NCBI GenBank assembly: GCA_963832745.1
Contig: CAWHVC010000001.1
Span: forward strand, 544,001-608,000
Source: Candidatus Bathyarchaeota archaeon
GTDB lineage: Archaea; Thermoproteota; Bathyarchaeia; Bathyarchaeales; Bathycorpusculaceae
Reading direction: 5' to 3'
Length of the DNA stretch: 64,000 nucleotides
Below the pieces are notes generated by a model. It was not told where the DNA came from. It ran no database searches and worked only from the letters and a program-made list of their open reading frames with translations. The position numbers were made by a program, and so were the translations under genes. Positions 17,081 to 45,873 of the stretch are shown piece after piece (the first letter of the stretch is position 1; each line of letters begins with the position of its first letter).

Positions 17081-17827
17081 TTAAAGTTTTAACTGCTTTT
17101 TTGCGTGCTTACTTAGCAGTAACACGGCAGATGCTGTAGCAAGTATCAATGGAACAACCACAAAAGAAATCTCTGGAACACTAGGAGTTGGCTGATTGAC
17201 AGCCCAAACATCAGAATTAGTGTTAGTCAATGTTTCCTTGGTTGTTGTTGTCTGACCATTGAGAGTTGTGTTTGTTTGATAGGAATAGTCAACAGCGATA
17301 CCTTTGATTTTGTCGAAGTATATTGTGATTGTTTCATCGGGTTCTTGACTTAAAATTATGTTTGTTTCTCTTTGGCCAGTTGCATAGGACCGAGTTACAG
17401 TGTCAGTTATTGTTTGGTGTCCACCATTTGGGTAAACGAGTTGATTTTTCTCAATGTTTGCCCTGACTATCAGGAAGCCATATGGAATATTGATTGCACC
17501 TGAATCAATGTTTATTGTTCCTGACTGAACGGTGCTTGTGCCGTTTTTAAAGGATTTAATGCAGTCTAAAGTAATGTTTGATCCGTCAACTTGAGTTATT
17601 TTGAATTGAATCTTTTGTGTATTGTTCAAATCTGTTATGTAACTGGGAGGGATTGCTGACGGGTTAGTGGAAGTCCAAGTAACGTTATAGCTGTAATCAA
17701 ACGTTTCACCCTTTGATATCCCAGCAGTGGTTGTTTGGGCAAATGCAGAAAAAGCTATTGAAGATGTCAAGCAACATAATGTTAACAGTAATACTGTAAA
17801 TATTGATCTTTTCATTTTCTTGTCCAA
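17081..17827 (-). CDS. Secreted surface protein with PEF-CTERM-like anchor
   Basis: Signal peptide ending AFA; T-rich body; PSVPEI-TM-KHAKK C-terminus. Confidence 0.75.
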   Translation of the reverse strand: MDKKMKRSIFTVLLLTLCCLTSSIAFSAFAQTTTAGISKGETFDYSYNVTWTSTNPSAIPPSYITDLNNTQKIQFKITQVDGSNITLDCIKSFKNGTSTVQSGTINIDSGAINIPYGFLIVRANIEKNQLVYPNGGHQTITDTVTRSYATGQRETNIILSQEPDETITIYFDKIKGIAVDYSYQTNTTLNGQTTTTKETLTNTNSDVWAVNQPTPSVPEISFVVVPLILATASAVLLLSKHAKKQLKL

Positions 17828-17880
17828 CCTTAATTTTTTAAAAATAAAAAAGGATTAAGAGTGATTTTGGTGACTTTGAA

Positions 17881-20088
17881 TTAAGCCACTGATATCACTA
17901 CGTTATCAACCCAAACTGATTCAACAGCGCCACCAAGACCGAATTCTAGGTCTGTTTGGAAGCGGAACCAGAAGGTTGGGTCGAACATGTCGGGATTGGC
18001 AGCTTTGGTGAATGTGTGCGTGTATGTTTGCCATCCACTGTTTGCAGATATGCTAAAGGCTATCGGTGTGAAGTCTGGGCTATCTTGGTTTAAGTTTGGA
18101 TTTGTCTTCACTGAGTAGAATATTTGGAAATCGTCTGCTTCGTTAGTGTTTTCCGTTTTGTACATGAAGGATATTGTTATCGTGTTTGCGTGCGAGGTGT
18201 CTAATGAGTTTGCTGTGAATGCGCCGCTGTTTATTCCGTATGGGTCAGATTTTGCGCAGTTTGTTCCGTCTACGCCTTCACCTGTTGCAACGTACCATGG
18301 TGGTTGACTTCCGACAGTAAAGCCGTATAGCCAGTTGTCACCGTCAAAGCCAGTGGAGCGAGTGTTAATGTTGAATGTTGTTTGAACTGATGCAAAGTGT
18401 GTTGCAGATACAGTTATGGTTGGTGTTCCTGTGCTTGAATCTTTATAGTAGAATGAAACTTTGTCGCTGGTTATGGTTAATGGTGATGTTTCGGTTATTT
18501 GTTGTGTGCATGCAGAGTCCTTGTAGAATTTGCCGCCGCTGGATGTTGATGCTAAGTTAAGTGTTGTTGTCCCAGTTGTGATTGGGGTTCCTGAGGAGGT
18601 TTGGCGTTGGACTGTTATTTTTGTTGATGCTCTGTTTAGTTCTATATATTGGTTTGTGCCTTCTGTGAAGACTAGTTTGTCTGTTGGTTGTGCTTGGAAG
18701 TTTGCGGTTATGGTTCCGTCGCCAAGTATTGTTGCTGTCGTTTGGGTTGCTGATGTGTCAACTATGTTGATGTCGCCGCTATGTGTCCAAGAAGTGAATA
18801 CGTAGCCAGTTTTTGGTGTAGCTGTTATGGTGACTTTGTCGCCGTAACCGTAGTTAATGGTTCCAGACGGGTTTATTGTTCCGTATGCTGGATTGTTTAC
18901 TGTGTAAGTTACTGTGTATGACGTGGGGTTTGCAGGTGTTATGGTGAATGTTGTTGTTGCTGTTTGATAGTCTGTTGCTTGTGCGGTTAGGGTTTGAGTG
19001 CCAAATATTGAAGACTTGTAATAGAAGTCAGCCCCGTTTAAATTGGAGTTGATTGTGATTGTAGTAATCGCGTTAGTGCATGCTGAGTCAGAGTAGAATG
19101 TTCCGGCTGTTGCACTTAGAGTGACTGTTGTTGTACCTGTTGTGATTGGGGTACCTGTTGAATCTTGGCGTTGTATGGTTATCTTTTCTGATGCAGTGCC
19201 TGTTTGCAGACTTTGTGGTGTACCGGCTACGAAAGCAAGCTTGTTGTTATTTGTTGGTTCATCTGTTGGGGTTGGTGTGTTGGTTGGTGGAGTTTCTGTC
19301 GGGGTGGCTGTTGGGGTTGGGTTGTCCGTTGGGTTTGGATTGTCGGTTGGTGTGGTTGTTGGAGTTGGTGTTGGAGTTGGGCTTGGTGGCGTGGTGGCGA
19401 AGGTTGCTGTAACGGTGCCGTCAACGTTTACTTTTACATATGTTGTTGAATCTGAAGTGCCGTAAATTGTGTTAGTTGTTGGATTGCTGCTCCAGTATTG
19501 GAAGTAGTATTCGGATCCTGCTATTGCAGTGATTGGTATTACTGAGCCCTTGAAGTATGAGTGTGCACCTACTGATGGCGTTATTGATGATGAGCCGGCG
19601 TCAACCATTTGGAAGGTTATAGTTGCGTTGGTAGCTGATTGTTGTCCTGCATCGCCTGAGCCTTCAATGAATGTTCCCTCAATAGTTACAATTTTGATGT
19701 GAAGTTCCTCGTTTGGCAATGGTATGTAGTCGATTACAAGTTTTAGGGTTTGACCTTCAGTGATAGGTATAGGATCAAGTGGAATAGCGGGTTGGTCATC
19801 CACTAAAAGGATGTTTTTAAGTACGTCGTTAACGTAAACTGCGCCGTCATACTTGAGATGCACAGTTCCTTGGCCCGTGTTTTGCACGTAAACTACCAAG
19901 TTTCCCTGAGTGGTAAAGCTTTGAAGCTGTATGCTGTTGTCTGCCTTTCCAGTTTGGTTGCCCATGTAGCCCATAACCCAAGCGTAAGCAACAAGCCCCG
20001 CTATCACGGCTATAGCAATCATAAGCAACGCTGAAATAACCGGCGAAATAGCACGAATTGACCGTTTAAACTTTGTAATATTTCTCAT
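17881..20088 (-). CDS. Large type IV pilin-domain adhesin (735 aa)
   Basis: Class III signal KRSIRA/ISPVISALLMIAIAV; pilin domain; PT-rich linker; duplicated KLxF..ITxQRQ..GTPITTG..FY.DSACT domain; C-terminal VWVDNV beta-sandwich. Confidence 0.85.
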   Translation of the reverse strand: MRNITKFKRSIRAISPVISALLMIAIAVIAGLVAYAWVMGYMGNQTGKADNSIQLQSFTTQGNLVVYVQNTGQGTVHLKYDGAVYVNDVLKNILLVDDQPAIPLDPIPITEGQTLKLVIDYIPLPNEELHIKIVTIEGTFIEGSGDAGQQSATNATITFQMVDAGSSSITPSVGAHSYFKGSVIPITAIAGSEYYFQYWSSNPTTNTIYGTSDSTTYVKVNVDGTVTATFATTPPSPTPTPTPTTTPTDNPNPTDNPTPTATPTETPPTNTPTPTDEPTNNNKLAFVAGTPQSLQTGTASEKITIQRQDSTGTPITTGTTTVTLSATAGTFYSDSACTNAITTITINSNLNGADFYYKSSIFGTQTLTAQATDYQTATTTFTITPANPTSYTVTYTVNNPAYGTINPSGTINYGYGDKVTITATPKTGYVFTSWTHSGDINIVDTSATQTTATILGDGTITANFQAQPTDKLVFTEGTNQYIELNRASTKITVQRQTSSGTPITTGTTTLNLASTSSGGKFYKDSACTQQITETSPLTITSDKVSFYYKDSSTGTPTITVSATHFASVQTTFNINTRSTGFDGDNWLYGFTVGSQPPWYVATGEGVDGTNCAKSDPYGINSGAFTANSLDTSHANTITISFMYKTENTNEADDFQIFYSVKTNPNLNQDSPDFTPIAFSISANSGWQTYTHTFTKAANPDMFDPTFWFRFQTDLEFGLGGAVESVWVDNVVISVA

Positions 20089-20263
20089 TTGTTATTCTCC
20101 TTTCCTCAAACTATAGTTTACTCTAAATCGTTAAATCAAATATCCGCTAAGTCGATATTTAAAGGAATCTTAAGAAACCACAACGTATCAAGAACAAGAA
20201 TAAGTACAAAAACAGACACAACCAAAACCGCACAACCAACCCAAAAAACAAAGAAACAACATG

Positions 20264-20310
20264 CTAATGGCTTGTTTTCCAACCATTAGCACCCTACCCC
20301 CTTATAGGTA
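20264..20310. repeat. Dispersed intergenic repeat copy
   Basis: CTAATGGCTTGTTTTCCAACCATTAGCACCCTACCCCCTTATAGG; includes the IR GCTAATGG/CCATTAGC. Confidence 0.6.
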
Positions 20311-20603
20311 TCTGCATACAACCACTAATAGAGCAAATAGACAACCACCTATAGAATAACAAATGACAACAAACAGTTAGGGCAACAATCAACAAACGAC
20401 AACTAAAAAACCAGACTACCAACTTTTGTTACTCACTTACTTCAACACATAGAACGATTTGGCATAAATTGCCCATCATCAGAGAATCAATGACTCCACA
20501 TAAATCAAAACAGGCTTGGTTATATTAAAAAGAAAAAGGAAACGGGGTTTATTTCCCCTATATCTCTATCATGCTTTCGATCTGACAGTAATAGTGTTTG
20601 ATG

Positions 20604-21857
20604 TTACGGTTGGTTTACAGTAACGATAGTTTGTGCTTGTGTTAAGCCCGTGGAAGTAGCGGTGAATGTCAAAGTTGCAGGAAGAGGATTTTCAGTCCAG
20701 TAGCCATAGTAGACATTGACAGAGCTAGAATCTGCAGGCAGAGTAATACTGTTTATGACGTTAGGGTAGGTATCGCCTTGATGTGCGTAGAAGTTGGCAT
20801 TGTTGACTCCCCCATCATCCAGATTTATCGTGATAGCGCCGCCAATTGTTGTGGGATTGCCAGATGCGGTCTGTCGCTCAATAGTGAACAGTGTATTAAC
20901 GCCAGCTATGATCGGTGAGGGATGAACAGAAAAGACCAATTTTGTTGCAACTTCAGAAGTGAATGTTGCACTGATTGTTGTGTCGCCAGTGATTGTTATT
21001 GTTGCTGGGTTTGTTGAGCCTGTTAAGTCGCCAGTCCATTCTGCGAAGCTTGAGTCGCCAGATGGAGTTGCAGTCAATTCAACAACATCACCGTAATGGT
21101 ATTTTTGTTGATCTGGGCTTTTAGCTACTGAACCTGAGCCTGTGCCGGCTGTGTTTACTGTTAATGTGTATTCGTTTTGTGTGAATACTGCTGTGATAGT
21201 TTTGGCTGAGTCCATTACAATTGGTAGTGGGTTAGTATTGCCGGTGTAGGAACCGCTCCAGTGGTTAAAAGTCCAACCGTTGTCTGCGACTGCTTCAATT
21301 TCAACTTGAGCGTTTGCATCGTAAGCTGAGGCATCAGGGGTTCTATCAACATGACCACCTTCATTATTTTCAATATTTGTTGTTAGTGTATATTGTTGCT
21401 GACCAGGGTTTGCTGTGGGTGAACTTGAGCCTGTGCCTTTGACTTCCATGAATGTGCCGCCTGTGGAGGTAACTTTAATTTGAATTTCTTCGCCAGCATT
21501 CCAGTCAGCAAGCAGATTAAGGTAGAATGCAGCAGTGTTACCTTCAGGAATATCCACTGAATCACTTCTAGCTGTGTCAATTGATACTAACTGGTCATTA
21601 ATGTAGATGCTACCGACTGTTACGGGTCCTTGACCAACATTCTGGACATAAACCCACATGTGACCTGCATCGTCACCTTTAACATAGCTAGGGATTTCTA
21701 TTGCTTGACCTGTTTTAGCGGTTTGGAAGTTCATATACCCCATAACCCAGGCGTAAGCAACCAGTGACGCTACGACTGCAATTGCAATCATAAGCAGCAC
21801 TGAAATTACAGGTGATATAGCTCTTATAGATCTCTTAAATTTTGTTACATATCTCAA
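20604..21857 (-). CDS. Large type IV pilin-domain adhesin (417 aa)
   Basis: KRSIRA/ISPVISVLLMIAIAV; two InlB-B-repeat-like domains (YTLT..Y..G..V.L.A...W.G..TG.TNP); KLVF..TIERQ domain. Confidence 0.85.
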   Translation of the reverse strand: MRYVTKFKRSIRAISPVISVLLMIAIAVVASLVAYAWVMGYMNFQTAKTGQAIEIPSYVKGDDAGHMWVYVQNVGQGPVTVGSIYINDQLVSIDTARSDSVDIPEGNTAAFYLNLLADWNAGEEIQIKVTSTGGTFMEVKGTGSSSPTANPGQQQYTLTTNIENNEGGHVDRTPDASAYDANAQVEIEAVADNGWTFNHWSGSYTGNTNPLPIVMDSAKTITAVFTQNEYTLTVNTAGTGSGSVAKSPDQQKYHYGDVVELTATPSGDSSFAEWTGDLTGSTNPATITITGDTTISATFTSEVATKLVFSVHPSPIIAGVNTLFTIERQTASGNPTTIGGAITINLDDGGVNNANFYAHQGDTYPNVINSITLPADSSSVNVYYGYWTENPLPATLTFTATSTGLTQAQTIVTVNQP

Positions 21858-21985
21858 TTCTTTCTCTTCTCCCTTCTCCTAAAAAGAAAAGCTAAACAAG
21901 TTACCAATAACATCTTATATAAAACTACATAGAACAAAACTTCAGACAAAAAAAGAACAACCATAACCACAAAAAATCAGCATAT

Positions 21986-22100
21986 TAATGGCTTGGCTTT
22001 CAACCAATAGCAACCTACCCCCCCTTAGAGATTTGCGGCGGTGGCAATTTCACAGCGGGTTTTGACCTACCCCCTATAGGTTTCAACATAGAACTACTAG
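21986..22100. repeat. Dispersed intergenic repeat copies
   Basis: TAATGGCTTGGCTTTCAACCAATAGCAACCTACCCCCCCT, then a second ACCTACCCCCTATAGG at ~22065. Confidence 0.6.
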
Positions 22101-22799
22101 TAGGGTCCTAATAGGATGGTATGAAAAGTAAAGCGGTTGAACCACAACAGAAAGCAGCGAACAGCAAAATGCAGGTTGGGCAACTAGGCAGGGCCCATTA
22201 AACGGTTACCCCGCCCTAAACAAGCCACAACCCACCCCACACACATAAGCAATTGTGGCAAACAAAAAACCAATTTAGAAAATCATTTTTCCAAAATCTT
22301 CTGAATTTCCTCTAAATGTTCAGCAACCCTTTCGCCCGTGAAAAGTTGCAAAGTTGCTTGCCATTATACACCTACATCATCGCAGTTTTCCCCGAACCCC
22401 TTAAAACAAGCCAAAAAACAACCCAATTCACCGATGAAGCAGGGTAACAGGCAAAAACGGCACAGTCAACAAAATGATGTTCAACTCATACTTAGGAAAG
22501 AATAAACAACCCACCACCTGCAAGTTTCAACATAGAGCCATTAATAGGACTCAATTGTCCTTTGAAAGTTTAGGCCACAGGTTTTGTTCAGATATGATAA
22601 TATGATCCAAAAAAACAGTTTAATAATTAAAAAATTAATTCGCACATTTTCAAGCCCTAATTCGATTCTTTAAATCAAGCATTCGCAAAGCTGCTATTCA
22701 AAAAAATACCCAGAACATATTAAAATTAAGTAAAAAAAACAGAATACCTTAAGAAGCTCGATTAAATTAACAAAAATCTTTTTTAAAAAAAAGAAAAAA

Positions 22800-24677
22800 T
22801 TAGGGGATTGTATAGCTACAGTAAATACTGTACTTAATGGTGTTGCTTCCTTCCCAACTTCCAACATTTGATGGGAATGTTCCTGTGTATGATGAACTCT
22901 CTGTTCTTCCTAGGCCGCCAGTATTTGAACTACCGTAGAGATATGCGTATTGTGAACCGCCATAACCACCTTGGTTGTTTGTCCAGACCACTATTACATA
23001 TTGAGTGCTTGCTGAAAGTGTTGGTTTATCCGCGCTAGCGAAATTGAAGACTACAAATTGATCGTCTGTAGAAGTTGAAACTGCCACTTGTTGAGTACTT
23101 GCTACAAGACTTCCACCTGTAGTGTATATTGCGGCTTTAACATTATAGTCTGTTGTAACATGGACATACGCAGATATACTATCAACTTTAACGGTGTATG
23201 CTGGAGATGTAAAGACTGAACCGACAATGCTATTTTCAATGCTTGTAGAATAGCTGCTTGATCCTGCTTGTGTGTTACCGAATGTTCCTGTGTTAGGGTT
23301 TACTGTTAAAGATGTTGCTTGACTTGTTGCATCGTAGTAGTTGTTGTCACCGCTGTAAATTGCTTGGAATTGATAAGTATCAACTGTTGTTGGAGTGTAA
23401 GTTGTTGATGCGGAACCGCTTGATAGACTTACTGCAGAGTTAAAGTCATTCCATGAACCTGATCCAATTTTTACTTGGAATTGTACGGTACTTGTTGGGT
23501 CGGAAACGCCTGAAACGCCGGTAACTGTCACGGATACTTGGACTTCGTTGTTAACGACAACTGGATTTGGAGTTACTGTTGGTGTTGAAACGGTTGCGGT
23601 TGCTTTGTTTACGGTTAAGGTTTCTGTGTTTCCTGTTGCAGTGTTATAGACACTATCGCCGCTGTATACTGCTCTTATTAGGTAGGATCCTTCTGCATTT
23701 GGTTGGACTGATGCTGAGCTGGCTGTGCCGCTTGATAATGGTCGGTTAGCGTCGCCAAATGTATTCCAGTTTGCTCCGCTGTCTGTTGAGTATTGGAATG
23801 TTACTGATCCTGTGGGAGTGCCTGCGGACCCTGAAACGGTTACTGAAGCTGTGATTGAATTACCCATTGTAATTGTGGTTGCGCTGAGGGTTGGAGCTGG
23901 AACATTTGCATTTTCTAGATCAGGTTCTTGAACTGATAGATTTCTTGATGTGCTTGCAGATGCATAAGTGCCGTCAGAAGCAAAGTTTACTGAAACTGTC
24001 CAAGCGCCAGTTACGTCAGGTGTGTATGAGTCACTGTATTGACCAGAAGAATCTGTTGTTTGTGTGTGAACAACATCGGTGTGTCCGCTTGATTGATAGG
24101 TAATTGTTACAGTTTTGTCTGGAATGCCTACACTGCTGGCTGTTAATGAACCAGAAGCAGTTACGCCTTCACCAAAAGTAATAGTGCTTGAGCTTAAATC
24201 GCAAGTTAGAACTGCGAAAGTTAAGCCTGGCTGGTTTGAATTGCTGCTGCCTGTGCCTTGGACTTCCATGAATGTGCCGCCTGTGGTTGTAACTTTGATC
24301 TTAACTTGGTCGCCAGCATGCCATGGAGCATTTAATTGGACAGTTAATTCTTTAGTTTCGCCAGCGTCAATTTTTAAGTCTGCGGGTGAAAGAATCTGCA
24401 CTTGTGCATCGTTAATGTATACGTTGCCCACTGTTACGGAACCTTGGCCGGTGTTCTGTACGTAAATTCGCATCTGCAAGTTATCAGCAGTTACACCCTC
24501 TGCATAGCTGGGGATTTGTATTGCTTCGCCCACCTTGTCAGTTTGGAAGTTCATGTATCCCATGACCCAGGCGTAGGCTACTAGTGAGGCTACGACTGCG
24601 ATTGCAATCATGAGCAGCACTGATATTACGGGTGATATACCTTTTATTGATCTTTTAAATTTGGTTATATTTCTCAA
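22800..24677 (-). CDS. Large type IV pilin-domain adhesin (625 aa) with Ig-like repeats
   Basis: KRSIKG/ISPVISVLLMIAIAV; Big_3-like repeats (PTGSVTF..AVYSGD..Y); distinct C-terminal domain. Confidence 0.85.
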   Translation of the reverse strand: MRNITKFKRSIKGISPVISVLLMIAIAVVASLVAYAWVMGYMNFQTDKVGEAIQIPSYAEGVTADNLQMRIYVQNTGQGSVTVGNVYINDAQVQILSPADLKIDAGETKELTVQLNAPWHAGDQVKIKVTTTGGTFMEVQGTGSSNSNQPGLTFAVLTCDLSSSTITFGEGVTASGSLTASSVGIPDKTVTITYQSSGHTDVVHTQTTDSSGQYSDSYTPDVTGAWTVSVNFASDGTYASASTSRNLSVQEPDLENANVPAPTLSATTITMGNSITASVTVSGSAGTPTGSVTFQYSTDSGANWNTFGDANRPLSSGTASSASVQPNAEGSYLIRAVYSGDSVYNTATGNTETLTVNKATATVSTPTVTPNPVVVNNEVQVSVTVTGVSGVSDPTSTVQFQVKIGSGSWNDFNSAVSLSSGSASTTYTPTTVDTYQFQAIYSGDNNYYDATSQATSLTVNPNTGTFGNTQAGSSSYSTSIENSIVGSVFTSPAYTVKVDSISAYVHVTTDYNVKAAIYTTGGSLVASTQQVAVSTSTDDQFVVFNFASADKPTLSASTQYVIVVWTNNQGGYGGSQYAYLYGSSNTGGLGRTESSSYTGTFPSNVGSWEGSNTIKYSIYCSYTIP

Positions 24678-24882
24678 TTTGTTTTCTTCTCCCTTCTCAC
24701 GTTTTTTAGAAATTTTCCTCTTTATTGTTGTTTGAAAATCAAGTAAGCGGTTAAACTATTTAAAAGGTAATGTAGTAAGCGTCTATTGAAACATGGAATA
24801 TGTCCAAAACTGGAATATGGGCATATAACCACCAAAACAAATAAGGACGCAAACAAGTTAACAGTTATACAGGTGGCAAAAG

Positions 24883-26031
24883 GTGGATACTTCAAAAATT
24901 CGGGTAAGAGAACATTTTGGTATAGCAACAAACGAAACCAGCACTAAACAAGTCAGTTTCCTTATCAGTCCACCCAAAGGCCGACAAAGCATACAGCAAC
25001 AAGACATCGTGCTACTTGACCATCCAATCTATGGCGAGACCTGCCAAATCATCGCGCAAGTTAAAGAAATCGCAAGTTATGAAGAATTTGCCGGCAGCAG
25101 CCATAACGACCGCTTAGGAAAAATGCTTGCAAACGCAGACATCATTGGATACGTCAATTTGGAAAAAGAAGACAAACCCTTGCAAAAACTTCTCGCGCCA
25201 CCTAACCCGGGAAGCCGCATCTACATGCCTTACACCGAATTTATAGAAGACGTCTTTGCAAGAGACCGCGCAGGCAAACCGTTTGAGCAGCCGCTTCAGT
25301 TTGGAAACAGTGAAACATGCGCTTTAACTCCAGACGGAGCAAGCAAGCAGGTCAGCATTTTCCTTAACGGCAAAGACATCATGGGCATGCATACATTGGT
25401 CTCGGCAGTTGGTGGGGCAGGAAAAACCAATGTCGTCAAAGTAATGGTTGAAGAGTTCACTCAAAAAGGCGATATGCCAATTGTAGTTGTGGACCCAAAC
25501 GGCGAATACCCAAACGTAGCTTCAGAAAAATATACAGCCGTAACTGTTACTCCGCAAATGAAAACTTTACCAAAAATCGCGGCAAACCAACTAACAATCC
25601 TTAAAGGGCAAACTTTAAGCTTGGAAGAAAAAGGCAAATTCTTTACAAGCCAAATCGCAGCACTGGTTAAAGCAAAAATGGATAAAACAGTTCCAAGTTT
25701 CCTGCTGGTAATTGAGGACCCAGAAAACATCCACGCCGACACGCTTAAGGAAATAATTAATGCAAAAATAGGCATAACCGCGGTTCTGGTTACATCACAC
25801 CCAACTGGCCTACAGGCGCCAATTCTTTTGCAGATGGGTAATCAAATCGTGGGAAAAACCGTTGACCCACAGGACATAGCGTACCTTAGAGGAATGTTAA
25901 ACTGCACAGAAAACGAATTCACAGGCCTTTGTCAGGGCGAGTTTTTTGTTAACGGTTTAAACATGGCGCGTCCAGCAAAAGTGCAAATAAAATTGGCACA
26001 AGCAGAGCTTTTGCTGAAACCTGGGGCATAA
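24883..26031 (+). CDS. HerA/DUF87-like protein (HAS barrel + shortened P-loop ATPase)
   Basis: N-terminal barrel ending PPNPGSRIY; HTLVSAVGGAGKT, VVVDPNGEY; degenerate Walker B LVIEDPE. Confidence 0.75.
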   Translation: MDTSKIRVREHFGIATNETSTKQVSFLISPPKGRQSIQQQDIVLLDHPIYGETCQIIAQVKEIASYEEFAGSSHNDRLGKMLANADIIGYVNLEKEDKPLQKLLAPPNPGSRIYMPYTEFIEDVFARDRAGKPFEQPLQFGNSETCALTPDGASKQVSIFLNGKDIMGMHTLVSAVGGAGKTNVVKVMVEEFTQKGDMPIVVVDPNGEYPNVASEKYTAVTVTPQMKTLPKIAANQLTILKGQTLSLEEKGKFFTSQIAALVKAKMDKTVPSFLLVIEDPENIHADTLKEIINAKIGITAVLVTSHPTGLQAPILLQMGNQIVGKTVDPQDIAYLRGMLNCTENEFTGLCQGEFFVNGLNMARPAKVQIKLAQAELLLKPGA

Positions 26032-26258
26032 AAGTTAAAGGCACACTTTATGTGGTAATTGCATCTCTTAGAAAGGGATTGTTAGGTAAGCAGGAAGCTA
26101 AAGACACGGTTTATGCGTTAGTGTTTAAGGGTTTTAGAATTGAACCTAAGCTTTTGGCAAGAATAATCGAAACAATCGAAAAAGAAAACGCAGAATAACT
26201 CGACCCAAACCTGCTGGTTCCTTAAAAAAGGCTTGATCCAGTTTTCAAAAAGTAGGGG

Positions 26259-26675
26259 TTATGGGTTGTATTGGTAGGTAGCTATGTTACCTGTTGTAGT
26301 CACTACTTTGTACAATACTGACCCAGCAGGTACTGACAAAGTTATAGGAATTGCAACCTGTTTGCCAGCAGGAACTAACCAGTCAGGATCATAGTAATCA
26401 TGACTTTTTGCGGGACCACTGCCACTAATCACCCAGACTCTGGAAATAGTTGTATCCATACCACCAGTGTTTGTAACAGTTAATTGGCTATCACTGTAAC
26501 CATCAATGCGAACGGGAGTCTGTATCTTGTCAACATAAAGCTGATTCATCTCACGGGTTGCCGCGTCATGCCAAAGATAAACGTTAGTAAAGAAGAAAAG
26601 TAAGATTACAATGAACATTACTGACCCAATCACTTCAGCGGTTCCTTTGCGATTTTTTATTAATTTTTTAAACAC
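26259..26675 (-). CDS. Minor type IV pilin
   Basis: NRKG/TAEVIGSVMFIVILL class III signal; VTNTGG; KVVTTTGN. Confidence 0.8.
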   Translation of the reverse strand: MFKKLIKNRKGTAEVIGSVMFIVILLFFFTNVYLWHDAATREMNQLYVDKIQTPVRIDGYSDSQLTVTNTGGMDTTISRVWVISGSGPAKSHDYYDPDWLVPAGKQVAIPITLSVPAGSVLYKVVTTTGNIATYQYNP

Positions 26676-26690
26676 ATTCTCAACTCCATG

Positions 26691-27143
26691 TTATGGTGCT
26701 ACAATTATTGACTCGAAGGTCGAGCCCCTGTTTGTTGAAACCTTGAAAGTATATTCATTATTTGAAACCCATGATATCAATGTTTGAGCGGGAATGAGGA
26801 CGTGCTCCCCCATAGGCACCTTAAGGTCAGTGCCCGGATTAATTGTAAGTGATAAACCATTAACGTATATGGCGTTAATATCAACATCAATCTTCCCAGC
26901 ATTATAAACCCATATCTCTGCTTGAGTTCCATAACTGCTACCGGATGGGTTCAGATTTATGTCTTCTATTGTTAGTGATTCCATTACTGCTCCACCTACA
27001 CCTTCTTTGTAGGTTTGTGCATACACTGTAACATAAGCAAAAAGAAGTGTCATTCCAATCATTACCACCATTATCATTAAGATGGTTGAGATGACTGTTG
27101 ACAGCGCACGATTGTTTTTTCTGGTTCTAAAGAGTTTTTTCAT
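26691..27143 (-). CDS. Minor type IV pilin
   Basis: Start MKKLF; NNRA/LSTVISTILMIMVV; VYNAG..IYVNG; KVSTNRG. Confidence 0.82.
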   Translation of the reverse strand: MKKLFRTRKNNRALSTVISTILMIMVVMIGMTLLFAYVTVYAQTYKEGVGGAVMESLTIEDINLNPSGSSYGTQAEIWVYNAGKIDVDINAIYVNGLSLTINPGTDLKVPMGEHVLIPAQTLISWVSNNEYTFKVSTNRGSTFESIIVAP

Positions 27144-27148
27144 GTTTG

Positions 27149-27997
27149 TTACACCCAGTTTGGCGGAATCGTAAACAGAAATATCACGTAACCAATAACA
27201 CACAGAATAATGGCATGTTTTAGACCACCTGCAACCCGGCGTTCGCCAAGTTTGCCAGCCATTAAACCGCCGGTAACCCCGGAAATTATCATGTCTTGAT
27301 AGAAGAAATCTTTAAACCCAGCTATACTGCCGATGGAGACTTGACCGCCGATTTGTGCCGAACCCTGCATTGGCGCAAAAAAAGATTGCACCAGCAAAAC
27401 AGCAGTTACAACAAAAACCATGAATGCCGCGTAAACGATGATTATGTAGGGTTTCATTTGCTGGTTGGTTTCGCGGTCCATTTCCCGCATTTCTTCCATG
27501 AAACCGGAGGTGGCGGTGAAGACTTTTTTGATTGTTCCGCCTGAACGGCTGGCTTCAAGAACCAAAGCGCAGAAACGGTTTACGACTGGCGAGTTAATGT
27601 TGTTTTTAAAGTTGGTTAATGCATCCTCAAATGAGGTGCCCCAGGACATTTGTACCGTGATTTTGCGCACTTCATCAGCTAAGGGGGCTGGTACCATACG
27701 GTTTTCTACAACTTTTTCAAACGCTTTTACAAGGGTTAAACCTGTCTCTTGGGATTCAGCTACACCTCGAACGAGAATGGGCAACTGGTTTTCGATTGCT
27801 TCCATCCATCGTTGGTTCTCGTAGTCCAAGATGGCGGATGGTATAAGAATTATCAGTATTGCAGCAAGGAAGATTTCGTTAAGATAAATGACAAACGTGG
27901 ATGATGAAAGTACTAGCAGCATAATAATGGGTATGACGACTGCAAGGACTGATGCGCCGGCTACTATTTGTCGTGTCTTTAATGAAATTTTTCGCAT
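27149..27997 (-). CDS. TadC/ArlJ-like pilus platform protein (T2SSF domain)
   Basis: ENQLP..ESQETGL..WG.SFEDAL..SGG; GLMAGKL. Confidence 0.88.
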   Translation of the reverse strand: MRKISLKTRQIVAGASVLAVVIPIIMLLVLSSSTFVIYLNEIFLAAILIILIPSAILDYENQRWMEAIENQLPILVRGVAESQETGLTLVKAFEKVVENRMVPAPLADEVRKITVQMSWGTSFEDALTNFKNNINSPVVNRFCALVLEASRSGGTIKKVFTATSGFMEEMREMDRETNQQMKPYIIIVYAAFMVFVVTAVLLVQSFFAPMQGSAQIGGQVSIGSIAGFKDFFYQDMIISGVTGGLMAGKLGERRVAGGLKHAIILCVIGYVIFLFTIPPNWV

Positions 27998-28002
27998 TTT
28001 GT

Positions 28003-28884
28003 TTACCTCGGTGGAGTCATTGAGTCAACAAGCAACAGCATGATGCCTACACCCGCTGGCGTAACAAGGAAAGTTAATAATGTCAAAGCAACTTGGGGAT
28101 CAATGCCGCCCATCATATCTGCGCCGCCGCCTAAGAAGGACATGATTGAAAGCATAACAACCAAGGCAAGTGGCAATGCAATCATGAAGCTAACGTAAAC
28201 TTCAGCCATACCGCCTAAGCTTTCAAGAAAACTTTTCATGCTGGCCATACGAGCTTTCTTAAACTTATCAGATTCATCACGCAGGTAGCTTGCTAAGTCG
28301 CCACCCATGTGTGAAGTTGTTACTACTCCGTCAAGTAAAGCACCGAATTTTTTTGAAGCAGAACGTTTTGCGCTGGCTTTTAGGGCTCCGTCAAGGTCAA
28401 GACCCATTAATTCAATGTCAGCGATTGTGCGTCTCATTTCCTGGCCTACACCGAATTCGTCACCCACGTTTGCCAGGGAGCGGAAGATGCGTTCGGGGGG
28501 CATGCCGGAACTTGCTAGGACTGCTAAGAAGTTTGCGGTTAATGGCAGGTTGGCGTCGATTTTTCTTGCGTTTGTTGAGATTGCAAAGTATGGGTAAACA
28601 TAGCAGGTTGCACCTGCAATCAAAGCTGAGACTACTCCCAGCAAAATTGCAAAACCCAAAGCCGAAAGAACAGGCATTATCAATGATGAAATTAGGAAAA
28701 TTACTATAAAACAGGCTATTCCTGTAATGCCTGAAGCAAAAACGGATAAGCCCATGTAGGCTTCAAAAGTCATTTTTAAGCTGGCTTTTGAGAGGTTTTC
28801 TTGCAGTGGCCCTATCTTGGCAGTTAAAGTTTTAGGAACATAACTGCTGATCTTTAAGAAAAGGGAGAGCAACTGCTTATTCAT
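28003..28884 (-). CDS. TadB/TadC-like pilus platform protein (T2SSF domain)
   Basis: IDANLP..LASSGMPP..GLDL..GGDL. Confidence 0.88.
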   Translation of the reverse strand: MNKQLLSLFLKISSYVPKTLTAKIGPLQENLSKASLKMTFEAYMGLSVFASGITGIACFIVIFLISSLIMPVLSALGFAILLGVVSALIAGATCYVYPYFAISTNARKIDANLPLTANFLAVLASSGMPPERIFRSLANVGDEFGVGQEMRRTIADIELMGLDLDGALKASAKRSASKKFGALLDGVVTTSHMGGDLASYLRDESDKFKKARMASMKSFLESLGGMAEVYVSFMIALPLALVVMLSIMSFLGGGADMMGGIDPQVALTLLTFLVTPAGVGIMLLLVDSMTPPR

Positions 28885-30551
28885 GCTTTTAATGCCTCTT
28901 TAAGGACCAAGTCTGGTTTTTCAACGTATGAACGGATAATGTTTGATACTTCTTTGTAGTTGCGCAATTTCTTGTTTTGCATCCACTCTACAATTTTGGT
29001 TCTGCGTTGTATTTCTTCTAAGGCTTCCTCGGTGCTTATGCCCTTTTTCTCTGCAATCTTTTCAAGGATGTAACTGCGTCCGGTAAAGTCGAAGGTATCC
29101 TGTGCAGGGTTCCACCTGTAAACCTCGTTGGTTAAGATTTCTCCTGAGCGGGGGTCTAAACCTACGATTTCTGAGGTTGCAACGGTTTTGCGTACCGGTT
29201 TACCGTTTAATTCAACTCTTTTCTGGACAAGGATAATATCTATGCCGGCGATGAGCGTTCTTGGAATGTTCATTGGCGCGGATTCTAAACGGTAAACGGT
29301 GGATTCAACTGATTCAGCGTGAACAGTGGACATGCCCAAGTGGCCAGTGCTAACTGCCTGAAACAGCGTGTAAGCTTCTTCACCTCTGATTTCACCCACA
29401 ATGATATAGTCGGGTCTTTGACGCAAAGACGCCTTTAGTAAGTCAAACAAGGTGACGTCGGCTGATTCTGTTGCGAGCCCAAAGTGGGTTCTTGTTGTTG
29501 CAGGAATCCAGTTTTCATGTGGCAAATTCAACTCGGGTGTGTCTTCGATAGAAACAACTTTAAGGTCAGGCTTGATGAACATGCTTAAGCAGTTAAGCAA
29601 AGTGGTTTTTCCAGCCGCGATACCTCCAGCGACCAAAATTGAAACCCTGTTTTCAACTGCGTACCAGAAAAACGCCGCCATTTCCGGTGAAAGACTACGG
29701 TAAGTTACAAGGTCAGTTATTGTGAAGGGGTCAATTTTGAATTTTCGGATAGTGAAAGTGGAGCCTTTGCGGGTGACTTCGCTGCCGTAGGTAAGGTTGA
29801 TTCTGCTGCCGTCTGGCAGGGTAGCGTCAAGCAGGGGTTGAGCGATTGAAACGTGGCTGCCACACATGTAAGCTAAACGAAGCGCGAAAGAGTCAAGCTC
29901 TCTGGCAGTGTCAAACTTTATGTTAGTTGAAATCGATTCAAACTTGCGGTGCCAAATATACAAGGGCACATCAATGCCGTCGCAGGACACATCTTCAATT
30001 AGTTGATCATGCATTAAGGCGTCAATTTTGCCAAAACCCAAATTATCCCGCACAATATAGTAAAGCAGTTTGTTGCGGTCCTCTTGAGATAGCTTAAAGT
30101 TGTATGAGTCCATGATTTCCTGGCAAGCCTTAAGCAGGTACTGTGAAGCTGCCTTCTTGGACTGCATATCTTTAGGTTTTAGCACCAGAACTTGGTTTAG
30201 GATTTCTCGTAACCGTTGAAGATTAACTACGTCAGATGCTGTAAGTTTTGGCTCGTCAATAACGTAGTAAACGTTGCCTCTTCTGCGGTCACGAACAATG
30301 TTAATGTAACAGAACGGAGGGTTAATCGGGTAAGTTTCAAGAATCTCAGCGTCAATCGGGACAGAAACAGGCTTAACAATGTCATCATCGACGGGTTCAG
30401 GTTGGGGGGTAAACTTTGGTTTTCTAAAACCTGTTTTTAGTTTGAGCTCTTTCTTTAGAGGCTCAGTTGTTTTCTGTTCAACGTCTTCTGTGACGGTGGC
30501 CTGTTTTTTCTTGTCGAATCGTTTTTTTATGTTGCCCCATTGAGTTCCCAT
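28881..30551 (-). CDS. Type IV pilus assembly ATPase (ArlI/PilB/VirB11 family)
   Basis: GGIAAGKTT, IEDTPEL, LRQRPDYIIVGEIRG, TGH..STVHA. Confidence 0.95.
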   Translation of the reverse strand: MGTQWGNIKKRFDKKKQATVTEDVEQKTTEPLKKELKLKTGFRKPKFTPQPEPVDDDIVKPVSVPIDAEILETYPINPPFCYINIVRDRRRGNVYYVIDEPKLTASDVVNLQRLREILNQVLVLKPKDMQSKKAASQYLLKACQEIMDSYNFKLSQEDRNKLLYYIVRDNLGFGKIDALMHDQLIEDVSCDGIDVPLYIWHRKFESISTNIKFDTARELDSFALRLAYMCGSHVSIAQPLLDATLPDGSRINLTYGSEVTRKGSTFTIRKFKIDPFTITDLVTYRSLSPEMAAFFWYAVENRVSILVAGGIAAGKTTLLNCLSMFIKPDLKVVSIEDTPELNLPHENWIPATTRTHFGLATESADVTLFDLLKASLRQRPDYIIVGEIRGEEAYTLFQAVSTGHLGMSTVHAESVESTVYRLESAPMNIPRTLIAGIDIILVQKRVELNGKPVRKTVATSEIVGLDPRSGEILTNEVYRWNPAQDTFDFTGRSYILEKIAEKKGISTEEALEEIQRRTKIVEWMQNKKLRNYKEVSNIIRSYVEKPDLVLKEALKA

Positions 30552-30647
30552 GTTAGTCCCCTCTCGTGAGATAGATGATAATGATAACTTGATATTTAAA
30601 AATTAAAAAAAGGAAAGATAGACTTGTTTTGCTTAGCAATTCCTGTT

Positions 30648-31112
30648 TTATGGGAATATCTTTGTTACTTCGCTGAATGTTCCGCCTGCGGTAGCGACTT
30701 TAATGTTGAAGACATCGCCTGAGTGAACGCTTGTAACACCTGCATCAATTTGCGTAGTTGAACCCTGACCGAGATTACCATTACTATCTAAACCGCCAAC
30801 AGGACCTGCAGCAGCAATCAAAGTGCCGTTAATGTATAAGCATTGACCAGTCGTTAGTTTTATTGATCCTTCACCTACGTTTTGCACATAAACTGAAATC
30901 TGTGGGCTACCAACAGTTGAATTTGAGACGCTTTGAATTTGTATAGCTTGGCCTGTCTTAGCGGTTTGGAAGTTCATGTATCCCATAACCCAAGCGTATG
31001 CTACTAGTGAAGCTACGACTGCGACTGCAATCATGAGCAGCACTGAAATTACTGGCGAAATTGCCTTTACATTTTTACGGATTTTTCTAAAGTTTTTATT
31101 AAAGTTAAACAT
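30648..31112 (-). CDS. Probable major type IV pilin
   Basis: NVKA/ISPVISVLLMIAVAV; pilin domain only; first gene of the operon. Confidence 0.85.
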   Translation of the reverse strand: MFNFNKNFRKIRKNVKAISPVISVLLMIAVAVVASLVAYAWVMGYMNFQTAKTGQAIQIQSVSNSTVGSPQISVYVQNVGEGSIKLTTGQCLYINGTLIAAAGPVGGLDSNGNLGQGSTTQIDAGVTSVHSGDVFNIKVATAGGTFSEVTKIFP

Positions 31113-31359: not shown

Positions 31360-32013
31360 ATGAAGTTCCTGAAAACAGGCATAGCCGGCTTTGACGAATT
31401 CCTACAAGGTGGATTACCACCACGCGTCCTACTGCTTTTGGGATCGCCTGGTTCAGGAAACGAGATTTTTGCAAGACAAATCATTTACAACAAAGCCAAA
31501 CAGAGCAAAATCACATACTTCACCTTTAACACAGCCTTTGACACCGTAAAAGAAGACATGGCAGCCTACGGATGGGACATAACACCGCTTCAGGAAAACG
31601 GCAACTGGAAATTCGTAAACCTCAAAGCCTCAAAAAAACCAGTAGACGACATCATAAATGAAATAAAAGAAAACCGTTCAATCATTCTAGACTCACTCTC
31701 AGAACTGCTGTTCACACAAAAAACTGCTGACGAAGCCATCCGCCTAATTATAGAATTGACCAGCCAAAATAGGCAAACACAGGAATGTCAAATGCTACTC
31801 TTAACAGAAGGAATGCAAGACCTAAAAACTGAAACAACAATGCAGCATTTCGCTGAAGGAGTAATTGATTTTGCCGTAACTTGGACTGCGGATTCTACAG
31901 TGCGGCATGTGGCTGTTAAAAAGTTGAGCGGTATGCTGGTTCCAAATAGACGACTGCTTTATTCAATTGGCAAGAAGGGTTTTGTGATAGAAACAGCAAC
32001 AAGAATAACTTAG
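31360..32013 (+). CDS. KaiC/RAD55-like single-domain protein with degenerate Walker A
   Basis: KTGIAGFDEFLQGG, GSPGSGNEIF (no KT), IILDSLS. Confidence 0.85.
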   Translation: MKFLKTGIAGFDEFLQGGLPPRVLLLLGSPGSGNEIFARQIIYNKAKQSKITYFTFNTAFDTVKEDMAAYGWDITPLQENGNWKFVNLKASKKPVDDIINEIKENRSIILDSLSELLFTQKTADEAIRLIIELTSQNRQTQECQMLLLTEGMQDLKTETTMQHFAEGVIDFAVTWTADSTVRHVAVKKLSGMLVPNRRLLYSIGKKGFVIETATRIT

Positions 32014-43458: not shown

Positions 43459-45873
43459 TCAAGGCTGTATCAACTTTACTGCAGAATTACCCCATAAGTC
43501 ATTTGCAGCTACACCAATTTTTTCTATTCCAGCGATTGGGGATGAAGTTACATGATAAACTTTTATTTCTTCTATTAGCGCACCATCATTGGCTGAGTTT
43601 GACAAAACAGTTAACCTAACGTATCTAACAGTTCGTTCACTAAATTGGTCTAAAACTATTCCGTGTTTTCCAGTATTAGAAACTATTTGGACCCAATTTG
43701 AACGGTCATTAGATACCTCGATTTTATAGTTGTAAAGTCTATTATCGCTACCATCATCACAAAAATAGGTTTGAATCTCACTTATAGAAACCGATGACCC
43801 CAAGTCTATTTCGACCCACTGAGGTAATTGAGTACTAGTACCCCAATAATTATTTTCTAGCTCTACCCCATCAACAATGAGTTCTGGTGCGTGCCCTAAC
43901 TCTTGAGATGATGCAGTAACACCCGAGGGGTTAGCGTTTACACTCACTTCAAGGATATGTGCATAAGAATTAGCCGAGTTATATGTGACGACAATTCTAA
44001 CATATTTTGCTTCGGTAGACTGATCAAGATAATCCCACACTACACCTCGACCATCTTTCTCATTTACCACTGTATTCCATGACAAATGATCATTTGAAAC
44101 TTGAATATAGTATCTGTATAAACGATTATCATAATCAAAAAAGTGAGTTCTAATATTGGTTATAGAAGATACAGAACCTAAGTCAAGTTCTAACCATGCA
44201 CCAGCCTGTACGGTACTAGGCGTACTATCCCAGAAACTCGAAAGGGTATCGTCACCATCAACAGTTCTTTGAGGTTCATATCCTTCTAAAAAGCCAGAAG
44301 CCGTGACACTTTCTACAGGCAGCCCCATTGTTGCTCGAGCAGCGACTGCCACATTTTCTCTCATAACTATTTGATTGGGAAGATCAAAAGTCCAAGAGTT
44401 AGTCCCAGTTTTTGAAGCTGTCACATGCAAGTAGTTCCCGTTAGCATACTTAAGTGCAACATATGGATGATCGCCCCACAAGGGTTCATTTGATGTAACC
44501 GTGTACGTATTAGCATTTTGGGTAATTGTCAAAGTAGGAGGGACATCATCACTAATTCCTACTGCTTTTTGAATAGCAGTTTTTGCAGTGACATACTGGA
44601 AAGAGACGCCATTAAAATCAGGGTTAGATTCGGCATTACGTAAATAAAGGTCAAGCCAGTTAACTAAAGTGTTTAAGTCATTTCTATCATGACTGTAGAG
44701 TGAAAAAACTGCGCTACCTGTTTCTTTAGCTTTTTGAAAAGCCGAATTAACATCTACCTGATTAAGCTCACCAAGGCTTGTTACTGCCCAAGAGCTAATA
44801 CCCTCAGGGTGAAATGGATACCAATCGCCACCTGGCGAAGTATATTCAAAAGGCATCCAATATGACTCCCAATCCAGCATACCAGGAGAATTCCATCCAG
44901 TTCGCCAGACTGATGGATAATAATTACTATCCAATATCATATGATCCAAAGCATCCATATGATATGTGTATGAACCATCCAAATCATTGTAGTACATTTT
45001 CCACATACCATCTTCAAAAACCATAAAATGATGATGATACTCGATAGCATCACCATACAACCCCAACTCGTTTCCCCAATAAGTATTAAGAATATCATAA
45101 ACAGCAGTATACCCTGAAACACCAACTTGAGTACCGTTTGCCCAGACAAAGTTACTTTTAGACATAAAATAATCCATTTCAGCAAACCATGTAACTTTAA
45201 ACGGGTTACCAAAACTATCTACATATGACTGCCGAAATGCATCATCGAATATTGCTGAAAGGGATGAATCGGTTTTATCGTATTCTCGCATATCTAACGT
45301 GGGATGGGGGTCTTTATTTTTCGGGTCATTTACATCCAAATATGGACTATGGTCTTCCCACATTTCAGTGTCAACCGCTATTACAACATAAACCGTTTTT
45401 TGATTCGAATTCTTAGAGAGACTTAGGGTGGCCTCAGTAAAAGTTCCATCATTTCCAGTAACTTTAATTTTCACGGGTTCATTCAAAGATAAGACAGAGT
45501 AATCGACTAGAATTGAAGCGGTCTGCCCTTCAGAAAGCCCAAAGGGTAACACTTGAGTATTACCGTTAATACTAAAAATTGTTTGGAGTTCATTCTTTAC
45601 GTAAACACTACTTGAACCTATTTCTATAAGACCTTGTCCAATGTTCTGCACATAAACTATTAGTTTGTTTGTACTTGGGTCAATGGCAGCGCTTTGTATT
45701 TGAAGAGCTTTACCGGTTCGAGTGGTTGTAAAGTTTAGGTACCCTCCAATCCAAGCGTAAGCTGCCAGAGCGGCGACTATTGTTATAGCTATCATCAGAA
45801 GAGCAGATATAACAGGCGAAAGCGCTCTAATATTACGTCTAAGTTTAGAAATTTTTTTCTTCAACATATACAT
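43459..45873 (-). CDS. Type IV pilin fused to putative deacetylase-like domain and two F5/8-type C (discoidin) domains
   Basis: NIRA/LSPVISALLMIAI; central VIAVDTE..VTWF..YHHHF..WRTGW..YSHD; two repeats of W.E.DLG..Y.I.VSND..W..A/VR/KYVR. Confidence 0.8.
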   Translation of the reverse strand: MYMLKKKISKLRRNIRALSPVISALLMIAITIVAALAAYAWIGGYLNFTTTRTGKALQIQSAAIDPSTNKLIVYVQNIGQGLIEIGSSSVYVKNELQTIFSINGNTQVLPFGLSEGQTASILVDYSVLSLNEPVKIKVTGNDGTFTEATLSLSKNSNQKTVYVVIAVDTEMWEDHSPYLDVNDPKNKDPHPTLDMREYDKTDSSLSAIFDDAFRQSYVDSFGNPFKVTWFAEMDYFMSKSNFVWANGTQVGVSGYTAVYDILNTYWGNELGLYGDAIEYHHHFMVFEDGMWKMYYNDLDGSYTYHMDALDHMILDSNYYPSVWRTGWNSPGMLDWESYWMPFEYTSPGGDWYPFHPEGISSWAVTSLGELNQVDVNSAFQKAKETGSAVFSLYSHDRNDLNTLVNWLDLYLRNAESNPDFNGVSFQYVTAKTAIQKAVGISDDVPPTLTITQNANTYTVTSNEPLWGDHPYVALKYANGNYLHVTASKTGTNSWTFDLPNQIVMRENVAVAARATMGLPVESVTASGFLEGYEPQRTVDGDDTLSSFWDSTPSTVQAGAWLELDLGSVSSITNIRTHFFDYDNRLYRYYIQVSNDHLSWNTVVNEKDGRGVVWDYLDQSTEAKYVRIVVTYNSANSYAHILEVSVNANPSGVTASSQELGHAPELIVDGVELENNYWGTSTQLPQWVEIDLGSSVSISEIQTYFCDDGSDNRLYNYKIEVSNDRSNWVQIVSNTGKHGIVLDQFSERTVRYVRLTVLSNSANDGALIEEIKVYHVTSSPIAGIEKIGVAANDLWGNSAVKLIQP

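Follow-up and report, generated by a model that had tools for sequence, protein, structure and literature searches.

Modular pilins have been catalogued in bacteria by Raynaud et al. (2021; PMC8179133), who reported more than 1,200 such proteins in 264 architectures, favoured a location at the pilus tip without excluding the shaft, and regarded these many architectures as products of evolutionary grafting. Named examples from that work are PilB (vWA) and PilC (lectin) of S. sanguinis, CofB, and TcpB; the set was defined by the prepilin signature IPR012902, and the word 'archaea' is absent from the available text of the paper. For archaea, Makarova, Koonin and Albers (2016; PMC4858521) predicted that the large class III signal-peptide proteins of pilus loci are minor pilins or adhesins, and described a duplication-prone pilin family of ~250-550 amino acids (aa) together with modular evolution and combinatorial variability. 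Sivabalasarma and Albers (2026; PMC13705601) proposed a functionalisation of type IV machineries through class III substrate-binding proteins, and reported that many loci encode adhesin-like proteins, that the Epd locus contains a class III galactose-binding protein, and that subsystem 4A is present in Bathyarchaeota; neither 'fused' nor 'modular' is used in the available text. A flagellar-like pilus of P. calidifontis (8FK7; 2023) is encoded by a locus with a KaiC-like ATPase (PMC10334743). The present analysis concerns a 64,000-nucleotide stretch of DNA, hereafter the window, from a Candidatus Bathyarchaeota archaeon (assembly GCA_963832745.1, contig CAWHVC010000001.1, positions 544,001 to 608,000), in which a short pilin beside a type IV pilus machine and four large proteins have one pilin module in common. 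The source genome comprises 3.02 Mb in 5 contigs and is 99% complete. With a probability of about 0.6, the large proteins are read here as archaeal modular type IV pilins, each made of a leader, a helix, a pilin domain, and a linker with an adhesin payload, that would be built into a filament of the short pilin.

The pilin module and its carriers

The five proteins are all encoded on the minus strand. The short pilin (154 aa; 30648..31112), located directly upstream of the assembly ATPase gene, is the candidate major subunit. Three large proteins had been noted in an earlier reading made from the sequence only: m735 (735 aa; 17881..20088), which consists of the pilin module, Flg_new_2, a Pro/Thr linker, a KLxF domain, a second Flg_new_2, a second KLxF domain, and a jelly-roll-like end; m417 (417 aa; 20604..21857), in which the module is followed by two Flg_new_2 repeats and one ~105-aa 'KLxF..RQ' domain; and m625 (625 aa; 22800..24677), with a Gly/Ser linker, Ig-like domains (three Big_3_5), and a lectin-like end. 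A fifth member, m804 (43459..45873), was missed by that reading and was found by searching the whole genome with the 154-aa pilin (E 8.7e-28); it sits 12 kb away, within a glycosylation island, and combines the pilin module with a ~360-aa middle domain and two F5/8 type C (CBM32-type) domains.

The 154-, 417-, 625-, and 735-aa proteins begin with the leader M..(T)KFKRSI(R/K)(A/G), which is followed by the helix ISPVIS(V/A)LLMIA(I/V)AV(V/I)A(S/G)LVAYAWVMGYM and by a pilin domain of ~130 residues that ends IK(V/I)..(T)..G(G)TF.E (IKIVTIEGTFIEG in the 735-aa protein). Identity of the module to the 154-aa pilin was 40% for m735, 51% for m417, and 50% for m625. Comparison of the 154-aa pilin with the whole genome recovered the three large genes at E 6.5e-35, 2.3e-32, and 1.8e-24, so the likeness of the modules is not due to chance. 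The archaellin/pilin N-terminal model TIGR02537 scored 32.7-38.2 bits in all five proteins (36.7 bits in the short pilin) against a cut-off of 20. Alignment, genome search, and TIGR02537 thus bear out the common N-terminus and pilin domain that the sequence-only reading had described in four of the proteins. All five also carry a class III leader of the form (K/R)(A/G)^(I/L)SPVIS (caret, cleavage site), followed by ~28 hydrophobic residues; the site rule is a small residue at -1 and a charged one at -2 (review PMC4371748).

A profile (A3) was built from 20 modules with the 154-aa pilin as its first row. It matched 8FK7 at E 1.8e-15 over residues 6-140 of 144 and, more weakly (1e-6 to 3e-4), Natrinema PilA2, Iho670, and the H. 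volcanii pilus; the soluble domain of S. acidocaldarius FlaG was matched at E 6e-6. On these profile matches, the globular domain of the module is homologous to the subunit of a solved filament. Short pilins end ...GGTFSEVTKIFP, right after the last strand, at the point where the long ones run on into a Gly/Ser/Thr linker (GTGSS...), and similarity between m417 and m625 at the DNA level ends at about codon 143.

A maximum-likelihood tree was computed from the globular part only, with the helix removed, using 24 rows and leaving out the two broken copies of genome G010. All of the carrier modules (16/16) fell into one clade (95/93), apart from the seven short pilins. The carriers of m417 and m625, whose payloads are unrelated, were sisters (99/95), and the 474- and 373-aa carriers of G007 were likewise paired. 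A carrier clade that contains sister carriers with unrelated payloads argues for a dedicated carrier lineage, duplicating and changing its cargo.

The assembly helix, in contrast, followed the genome and not the globular-part tree. Over the first 30 mature residues, short and long pilins differed by a mean of 2.36 residues within a genome (14 pairs) and 5.12 between genomes (114 pairs), and a within-genome mean that low was reached in 0/5000 shuffles of the genome labels, a count that overstates independence because the test covers eight genomes, some of them close kin (G004/G016). With two out-of-locus carriers added, the means were 3.12 (16 pairs) and 5.53 (128 pairs), respectively. Lineage-specific helix residues included F28 (in all four G007 copies), A6/T7 (G010), and I4/T7/L10 (G020), and such residues were common to all paralogues of a genome but encoded by different codons. 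Helix synonymous (pS) values were 0.34-0.89, and non-synonymous (pN) values were 0-0.03 for most pairs. Recent gene conversion was considered as the source of the invariant helix and ruled out, since synonymous sites have diverged and codons differ.

In the genome analysed here, the number of helix residues in common with the short pilin, of 30, was 29 for m417, 29 for m625, 25 for m735, and 20 for m804, whereas other pilin-like proteins of this genome, linked to three other ATPases, matched at only 10-13. Helices that track the short pilin of their own genome while synonymous sites diverge point to co-assembly, and the simplest reading of these comparisons indicates selection for helix-helix compatibility among the proteins of one machine and filament. 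This agrees with experiments on PilA1-6 of H. volcanii, six pilins with one common H-domain whose replacement abolishes pili (PMC4371748).

Payloads and their variation among relatives

Two of the C-terminal repeat types described in the sequence-only reading were recovered as Pfam families. The InlB-B-like repeats correspond to Flg_new_2, a divergent InlB B-repeat present in two copies each in m735 and m417, and the Ig repeats to Big_3_5, present in three copies in m625. The 'KLxF..RQ' repeats turned out to be a true domain of ~105 residues, with two copies in m735 (52% identity) and one in m417 (29%). The lectin-like ends are weakly supported, by a MAM match (E 1.3e-5) in the G008 orthologue of m735 and, for the end of m625, by a language-model lead to Lectin_like/DUF4082 clusters (0.91-0.92). 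In m804 the two F5/8 type C domains (E 1.8e-38) resemble the CBM32 domains of alginate lyases and chitosanases (PDB CBM32 entries at E 3.3e-8 to 1.5e-7). Its ~360-aa middle domain matched no Pfam family and, outside the carrier, has nothing in common with the pilin-deacetylase of G008 described below; language-model leads to a deacetylase/DUF2334 group, all below 0.9, make it possible that the m804 payload includes an enzyme domain.

Payload domains of these kinds also occur apart from the module. Flg_new_2 repeats are present in four other large frames of this genome. Of 8000 scored candidates, 198 were related to the m625 payload at E<=1e-5; among the best 50 of these 198, two have a class III pilin N-terminus by pattern and two more start inside a pilin module, and about 29 have an ordinary Sec-type signal peptide as judged by eye, many of these 29 also having a C-terminal membrane anchor. 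Elsewhere, therefore, the Big_3_5 payload type stands mostly behind ordinary Sec signal peptides.

The size of the module family was estimated in two ways. A word-based search of proteins of 271-2000 aa gave 319 matches at E<=1e-5, and an exhaustive profile search of cluster representatives gave 2930 at E<=0.001, 901 at 1e-10, and 334 at 1e-30. The best 150 representatives comprised 138 proteins of >200 aa and 12 of <=200 aa (median 560 aa), a share of long forms that is inflated by clustering at 50% identity because diverse payloads split clusters. In the 138 long representatives the payloads were Flg_new_2 (56), PKD_4 (22), Big_3_5 (14), Big_9 (11), Cadherin_5 (9), and He_PIG (6), with Laminin_G_3, F5/8 type C, and DUF2341 found in 1-2 each; the payload families are adhesin-like.

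Module matches were present in 35 of 41 related genomes. Loci were fetched from ten genomes and compared with the proteins of the window. The machine genes are syntenic at 55-82% identity, in the conserved order KaiC-like gene, short pilin, ATPase, two platform genes, two small pilins, and HerA-like gene, and the short pilin stands upstream of the ATPase in G003, G004, G016, and G020 and also, with an in-frame stop, in G008. The slot past the HerA-like gene varies: it is occupied by pilins of 625, 417, and 735 aa in the window (G000), 545 and 722 aa in G003, 373, 474, and 594 aa in G007, 743 aa in G008, 1296 aa in G020, at least 1282 aa in G004, 1576 aa in G016, and 359 aa in G040, which belongs to another family of the order. 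Pfam payloads in the fetched modular pilins include Flg_new_2, PKD, Big_1, a MAM-like end, and Polysacc_deac_1. The last of these is found outside the slot, in a 395-aa protein of G008 (L034:11697-12884) that joins a carrier pilin module to Polysacc_deac_1 (E 7.9e-23) as a pilin-enzyme fusion.

In a survey of the genus, the module was found at E<=1e-25 in 46 of 120 genomes (27 of the 73 high-quality ones). With a long copy defined as an open frame of >250 aa, ten genomes had no long copy, 17 had one, 12 had two, five had three, one (this genome) had four, and one had five. The 65 long frames measured 267-1839 aa (median 695), these lengths being those of raw open frames with any N runs included, among which the 1077 of G005 is inflated. 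An apparent '1057-aa' fusion of a 248-aa-type protein to a modular pilin in G005 was rejected as an artefact in which an 86-base N run joins two genes.

Not every payload varies to the same degree. The orthologous group of m735 includes members in G003, G005, G007, G008, and G020, and a BLAST comparison restricted to the payloads found related m735-type payloads in G003, G007, G008, and G005 (54-98% coverage, 38-43% identity). By these comparisons the m735 type is a fairly stable orthologue with a related payload, unlike a picture of swappable cargo. The payloads of m625 and m804, in the same kind of comparison, had no counterpart among 12 other fetched modular pilins. The claim of the sequence-only reading that payloads are interchangeable behind a constant N-terminus, with no fixed orthologous set among relatives, accordingly stands for the most part: genomes with the module carry 0-5 long copies and sister carriers bear unrelated cargo, with the m735 type as the part that does not fit.

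Immediately downstream of m735 lies a gene (17081..17827, minus strand) for a secreted, C-terminally anchored protein of 248 aa with a Ser/Thr-rich stalk and no match to a Pfam family. A homologue is located directly downstream of the m735-type gene in G003, G005, G007, and G008, and the 248-aa protein may be a partner or receptor of the m735-type pilin.

The machine, its proposed mechanism and the alternatives

As transcribed on the minus strand, the locus consists of the 154-aa pilin, a T2SSE ATPase, two T2SSF genes, and two small pilin-like genes; downstream of a divergent HerA/DUF87-like gene follow the 625-, 417-, and 735-aa genes and then that of the 248-aa secreted protein. The assembly ATPase (28881..30551, minus; ArlI/GspE-like; T2SSE E 1.2e-39) matched PDB entries 2OAP at E 1.3e-126 and FlaI 4II7 at E 8e-89, and on its model scores is a generic archaeal secretion ATPase. 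The TadC/ArlJ-like platform protein is split between two genes: the first half (28003..28884, minus; T2SSF E 2.3e-14) matches the N-terminal half of the ArlJ/UpsF models, and the second (27149..27997, minus; T2SSF E 5.9e-17) the C-terminal half of the UpsF/ArlJ models. The first of the small pilin-like proteins is a 170-aa open reading frame (ORF; 26691..27203, minus) with a match to 8FK7 at E 1.4e-4 and weak UpsB/UpsA matches; its start is likely to be internal, at MKKLFRTRKNNRA^LSTVIS, and it was found at 37-54% identity in five of the five fetched loci that cover the position. The second (138 aa; 26259..26675, minus) has a basic N-terminal leader and a hydrophobic helix, matches 8FK7 at E 0.02 only, and is likewise syntenic in all five fetched loci covering its position.

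Two further ATPase genes are transcribed on the plus strand. A HerA/DUF87-like ATPase (24883..26031; DUF87 E 8.7e-13), divergent from its neighbours, was present at 35-48% identity in six fetched loci (G003, G020, G004, G016, G010, and G040); standing between the machine genes and the modular pilins, it is a constant member of the locus even in another family, and HerA has no occurrence in the available text of the 2026 survey of archaeal type IV machineries (PMC13705601). A KaiC/ArlH-like ATPase (31360..32013; KaiC family E 8e-26), divergent from the short pilin, is syntenic in six fetched loci. One prepilin peptidase (a single Peptidase_A24 match, 44.1 bits) and four pilus-type ATPases were found in the genome.

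Scores against archaellum equivalogs were 435 bits for FlaI (cut-off 550), 21-79 for ArlJ (400-570; the gene is split), and 36 for ArlH (215), with ArlX/ArlCDE not searched. Those against bindosome components were 219 bits for BasE (cut-off 1000), 23.6 for BasF (1300), and 17.7 for BasA (230), and no ABC transporter was seen among the listed ORFs of positions 1-52000 of the window. On these scores and the profile matches of the module, the system is a type IV pilus that branches near the base of the archaellum lineage; it is neither an archaellum nor a bindosome.

Under the reading preferred here, the single prepilin peptidase would cut ahead of the helix, which would then keep the protein in the membrane until the adjacent ATPase and the split platform protein built the large pilin into a filament of the 154-aa pilin. 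The payload would be held out from the cell surface, either at the filament tip or at scattered points on the shaft, where its display would serve attachment to particles, polysaccharides, or other cells, and species would vary in the number of carriers and in their cargo. A broader proposal, offered tentatively and on balance doubtful, is that the pilus is a polymorphic display scaffold whose carrier lineage, its fit to the shaft pilin maintained by co-evolving assembly helices, loads adhesin, lectin, and carbohydrate-active modules from a pool of surface domains and so binds and processes polymers remotely. Candidate examples of carbohydrate-active cargo are m804, with its CBM32-type domains, and the pilin-polysaccharide deacetylase of G008. 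If this were true, the filament would be a pilus-borne counterpart of the cellulosome, and species would differ mainly in the modules loaded.

Several observations weigh against incorporation of the large pilins into a filament of the short one by the adjoining machine. Pfam Pilin_N scored 22.3-25.0 in four of the proteins, with a gathering score of 25.2, and was unlisted for m625. The presence of four pilus-type ATPases in the genome means that the large pilins are assigned to the adjacent machine by adjacency and helix matching alone, and the helix test itself draws partly on related genomes, as given above. G040, a complete genome on a single contig, has the whole locus, but none of its short pilins has a helix that fits (13/30 at best), which leaves the 359-aa modular pilin as the only fitting subunit there. 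The short pilin of G008 (L034:956-1420) has an in-frame TAG in place of the conserved helix Trp, and in G010 (L040/L044) truncation or a frameshift affects the short pilin as well as the two modular pilins; both cases may reflect a decaying system or errors in the assembly. Finally, of the 36 genomes in the genus that have a long copy, six yielded no copy of 130-250 aa at E<=1e-25, which incomplete assemblies may explain in part. Taken together, G040, G008, and the six genus genomes imply that co-assembly with the short pilin is not obligatory, and carriers may polymerise without it or work as membrane-anchored proteins. The one adjoining machine that the sequence-only reading held to serve all the large pilins is therefore upheld as to the adjacent T2SSE and T2SSF genes and the helices that match the short pilin of the same genome, and qualified by the other ATPases and by G040.

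The same cases from G040, G008, and the six genus genomes count in favour of a different explanation, in which the long proteins are alternative major subunits that polymerise by themselves, the shaft is covered by their extra domains, and regulation decides which of them the cell uses. Such self-polymerising subunits have a model in flagellins that bear large outer domains. Every long gene is preceded by a long upstream region of its own (515, 942, and 205 bp), and each of the six PilA proteins of H. volcanii, with their common H-domain, can be a major pilin (PMC4371748). Such filaments are nevertheless unlikely: with a payload of 270-1400 residues on every subunit and a rise of a few angstroms they would be very crowded, the short pilin is kept directly upstream of the ATPase in most fetched loci, and a carrier clade distinct from the short pilins suggests another role. 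A bindosome-like display, with the class III signal and helix acting as a membrane or short-pseudopilus anchor and the payloads working at the envelope, has precedents in the archaeal class III substrate-binding proteins whose conserved N-termini share one base machine (PMC13705601) and in the membrane-associated pilins of H. volcanii, which alone give some adhesion (PMC4371748); weak BasA, BasE, and BasF matches also point that way. The BasE and BasF scores nevertheless lie far below their cut-offs, the payloads are adhesin repeats and not solute-binding proteins, with no ABC transporter beside them, and a complete pilin globular domain, which a mere anchor would not need, is retained by the carrier, all of which makes such a display improbable.

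Least probable by a wide measure is that the long proteins are not adhesins at all and are envelope-spanning parts of the machine, such as an ArlF/ArlG-like stator or S-layer tethers. The match of the module profile to the soluble domain of FlaG, public automatic names of the type 'FlaG/FlaF family flagellin', and the ArlI-like and ArlH-like genes of the locus are consistent with that role. Core parts would be expected to be conserved, however, whereas the long pilins vary in number (0-5) and content within the genus, and the two conserved small pilin-like genes are the better candidates. In the reading of the long proteins as modular pilins, by contrast with that of alternative major subunits, the short pilin would supply the shaft.

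The intergenic regions and the surroundings of the locus were also inspected. The four intergenic regions that border the modular pilin genes contained no silent pilin or payload cassettes or gene remnants; the only match at E<=0.01 covered 21 residues upstream of the short pilin, and a search for inverted repeats flanking an invertible promoter gave only short, imperfect pairs. Rfam returned three matches in positions 17000-32000 of the window, all far below gathering scores, and a scan for promoters and terminators with bacterial models did no better than shuffles. A repeated element is present at 20237-20332 and 21958-22104 (also 22509-22548), upstream of the m735 and m417 genes; its copies are 75% identical over 79 nt and contain a CCTATAGGGGGTAGG box as well as a 12-bp hairpin with a T-run behind it. 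The element is kept in G008 and has no Rfam match; it may act as a regulatory site or terminate transcription of the gene before it.

The whole cluster lies within a surface-glycan island containing a flippase, glycosyltransferases, radical SAM enzymes, a DegT aminotransferase, and a GH5 cellulase. The part at 32136-49785 encodes four GT1/GT4-type and two GT2-type glycosyltransferases, two radical SAM enzymes, DegT, and DUF1616 membrane proteins, and also holds the secreted GH5 cellulase (38283-39485) and m804. At 14478-16071, on the minus strand, two ORFs overlap, one of 385 aa that matches the C-terminal half of flippase models (Polysacc_synt, MurJ, MatE) and one of 216 aa that matches the N-terminal half; by these matches they represent a frameshifted or split polysaccharide flippase gene. 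A 302-aa ORF at 122-1030 (minus), with an N-terminal Cys-rich zinc-finger-like motif, was picked out by eye as a candidate insertion-sequence transposase.

Comparison with known systems

The bacterial modular pilins resemble the proteins described here in joining a pilin module, through a linker, to a domain that is not specific to pilus biology. They differ in the leader, which here is of the archaeal class III type (RA^ISPVIS, read from the sequence), with isoleucine at +5 and no G^F..LxE-type motif, and in the carrier, which here is an Ig-like archaeal pilin bearing mostly repeated beta-sandwich payloads and known from genes alone. Going by these features, the five large and short pilins are an archaeal counterpart that falls outside the bacterial IPR012902 set.

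Likeness to the P. calidifontis pilus extends to a pilin domain that is homologous over its full length and to the KaiC/FlaH-like and FlaI-like ATPases of the locus. The subunit solved there is a plain 144-aa pilin with no payload, and FlaF/FlaG genes are lacking according to the available text (PMC10334743); the locus described here adds two small pilin-like genes, a HerA-like ATPase, and the modular pilins. With PilA1-6 of H. volcanii (Esquivel et al. 2013, as cited in PMC4371748) the present family has in common a set of paralogues with a near-invariant hydrophobic helix that are served by one machine. Those pilins are small, can each form the major subunit, and are not encoded beside the machine (PMC4371748), whereas here payloads of 270-650 residues are present and the genes adjoin the machine.

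The Sulfolobales bindosome likewise has large proteins with conserved class III N-termini, diverse C-termini, and one base machine (PMC13705601), and the difference lies in the payloads, which here are adhesin repeats and lectin-like domains in place of solute-binding proteins, and in the full pilin globular domain that is kept. The large minor pilins or adhesins predicted by Makarova et al. (2016) come without a distinct carrier clade, helix co-evolution, or a payload catalogue in the available text, in which Bathyarchaeota has no occurrence (PMC4858521). A literature search that did not extend to the S1-S6 Figs of PMC13705601 found no paper on the Bathyarchaeial family, the carrier clade, or helix matching.

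From the published texts and the sequences compared here, the idea of modular pilins has already been published for bacteria (PMC8179133) and in part for archaea (PMC13705601). The locus extends a known principle to a new lineage and establishes no new one. Bathyarchaeia are abundant, almost uncultured sediment archaea that are thought to live on detrital polymers. We know of no account of how they attach to particles, and the locus offers a concrete candidate, namely a pilus related to a solved filament whose specificity would be set by swappable subunits. The helix-matching rule, by which carrier and shaft pilin share lineage-specific residues, could in turn help to link orphan class III proteins of other archaea with the machines that they use.

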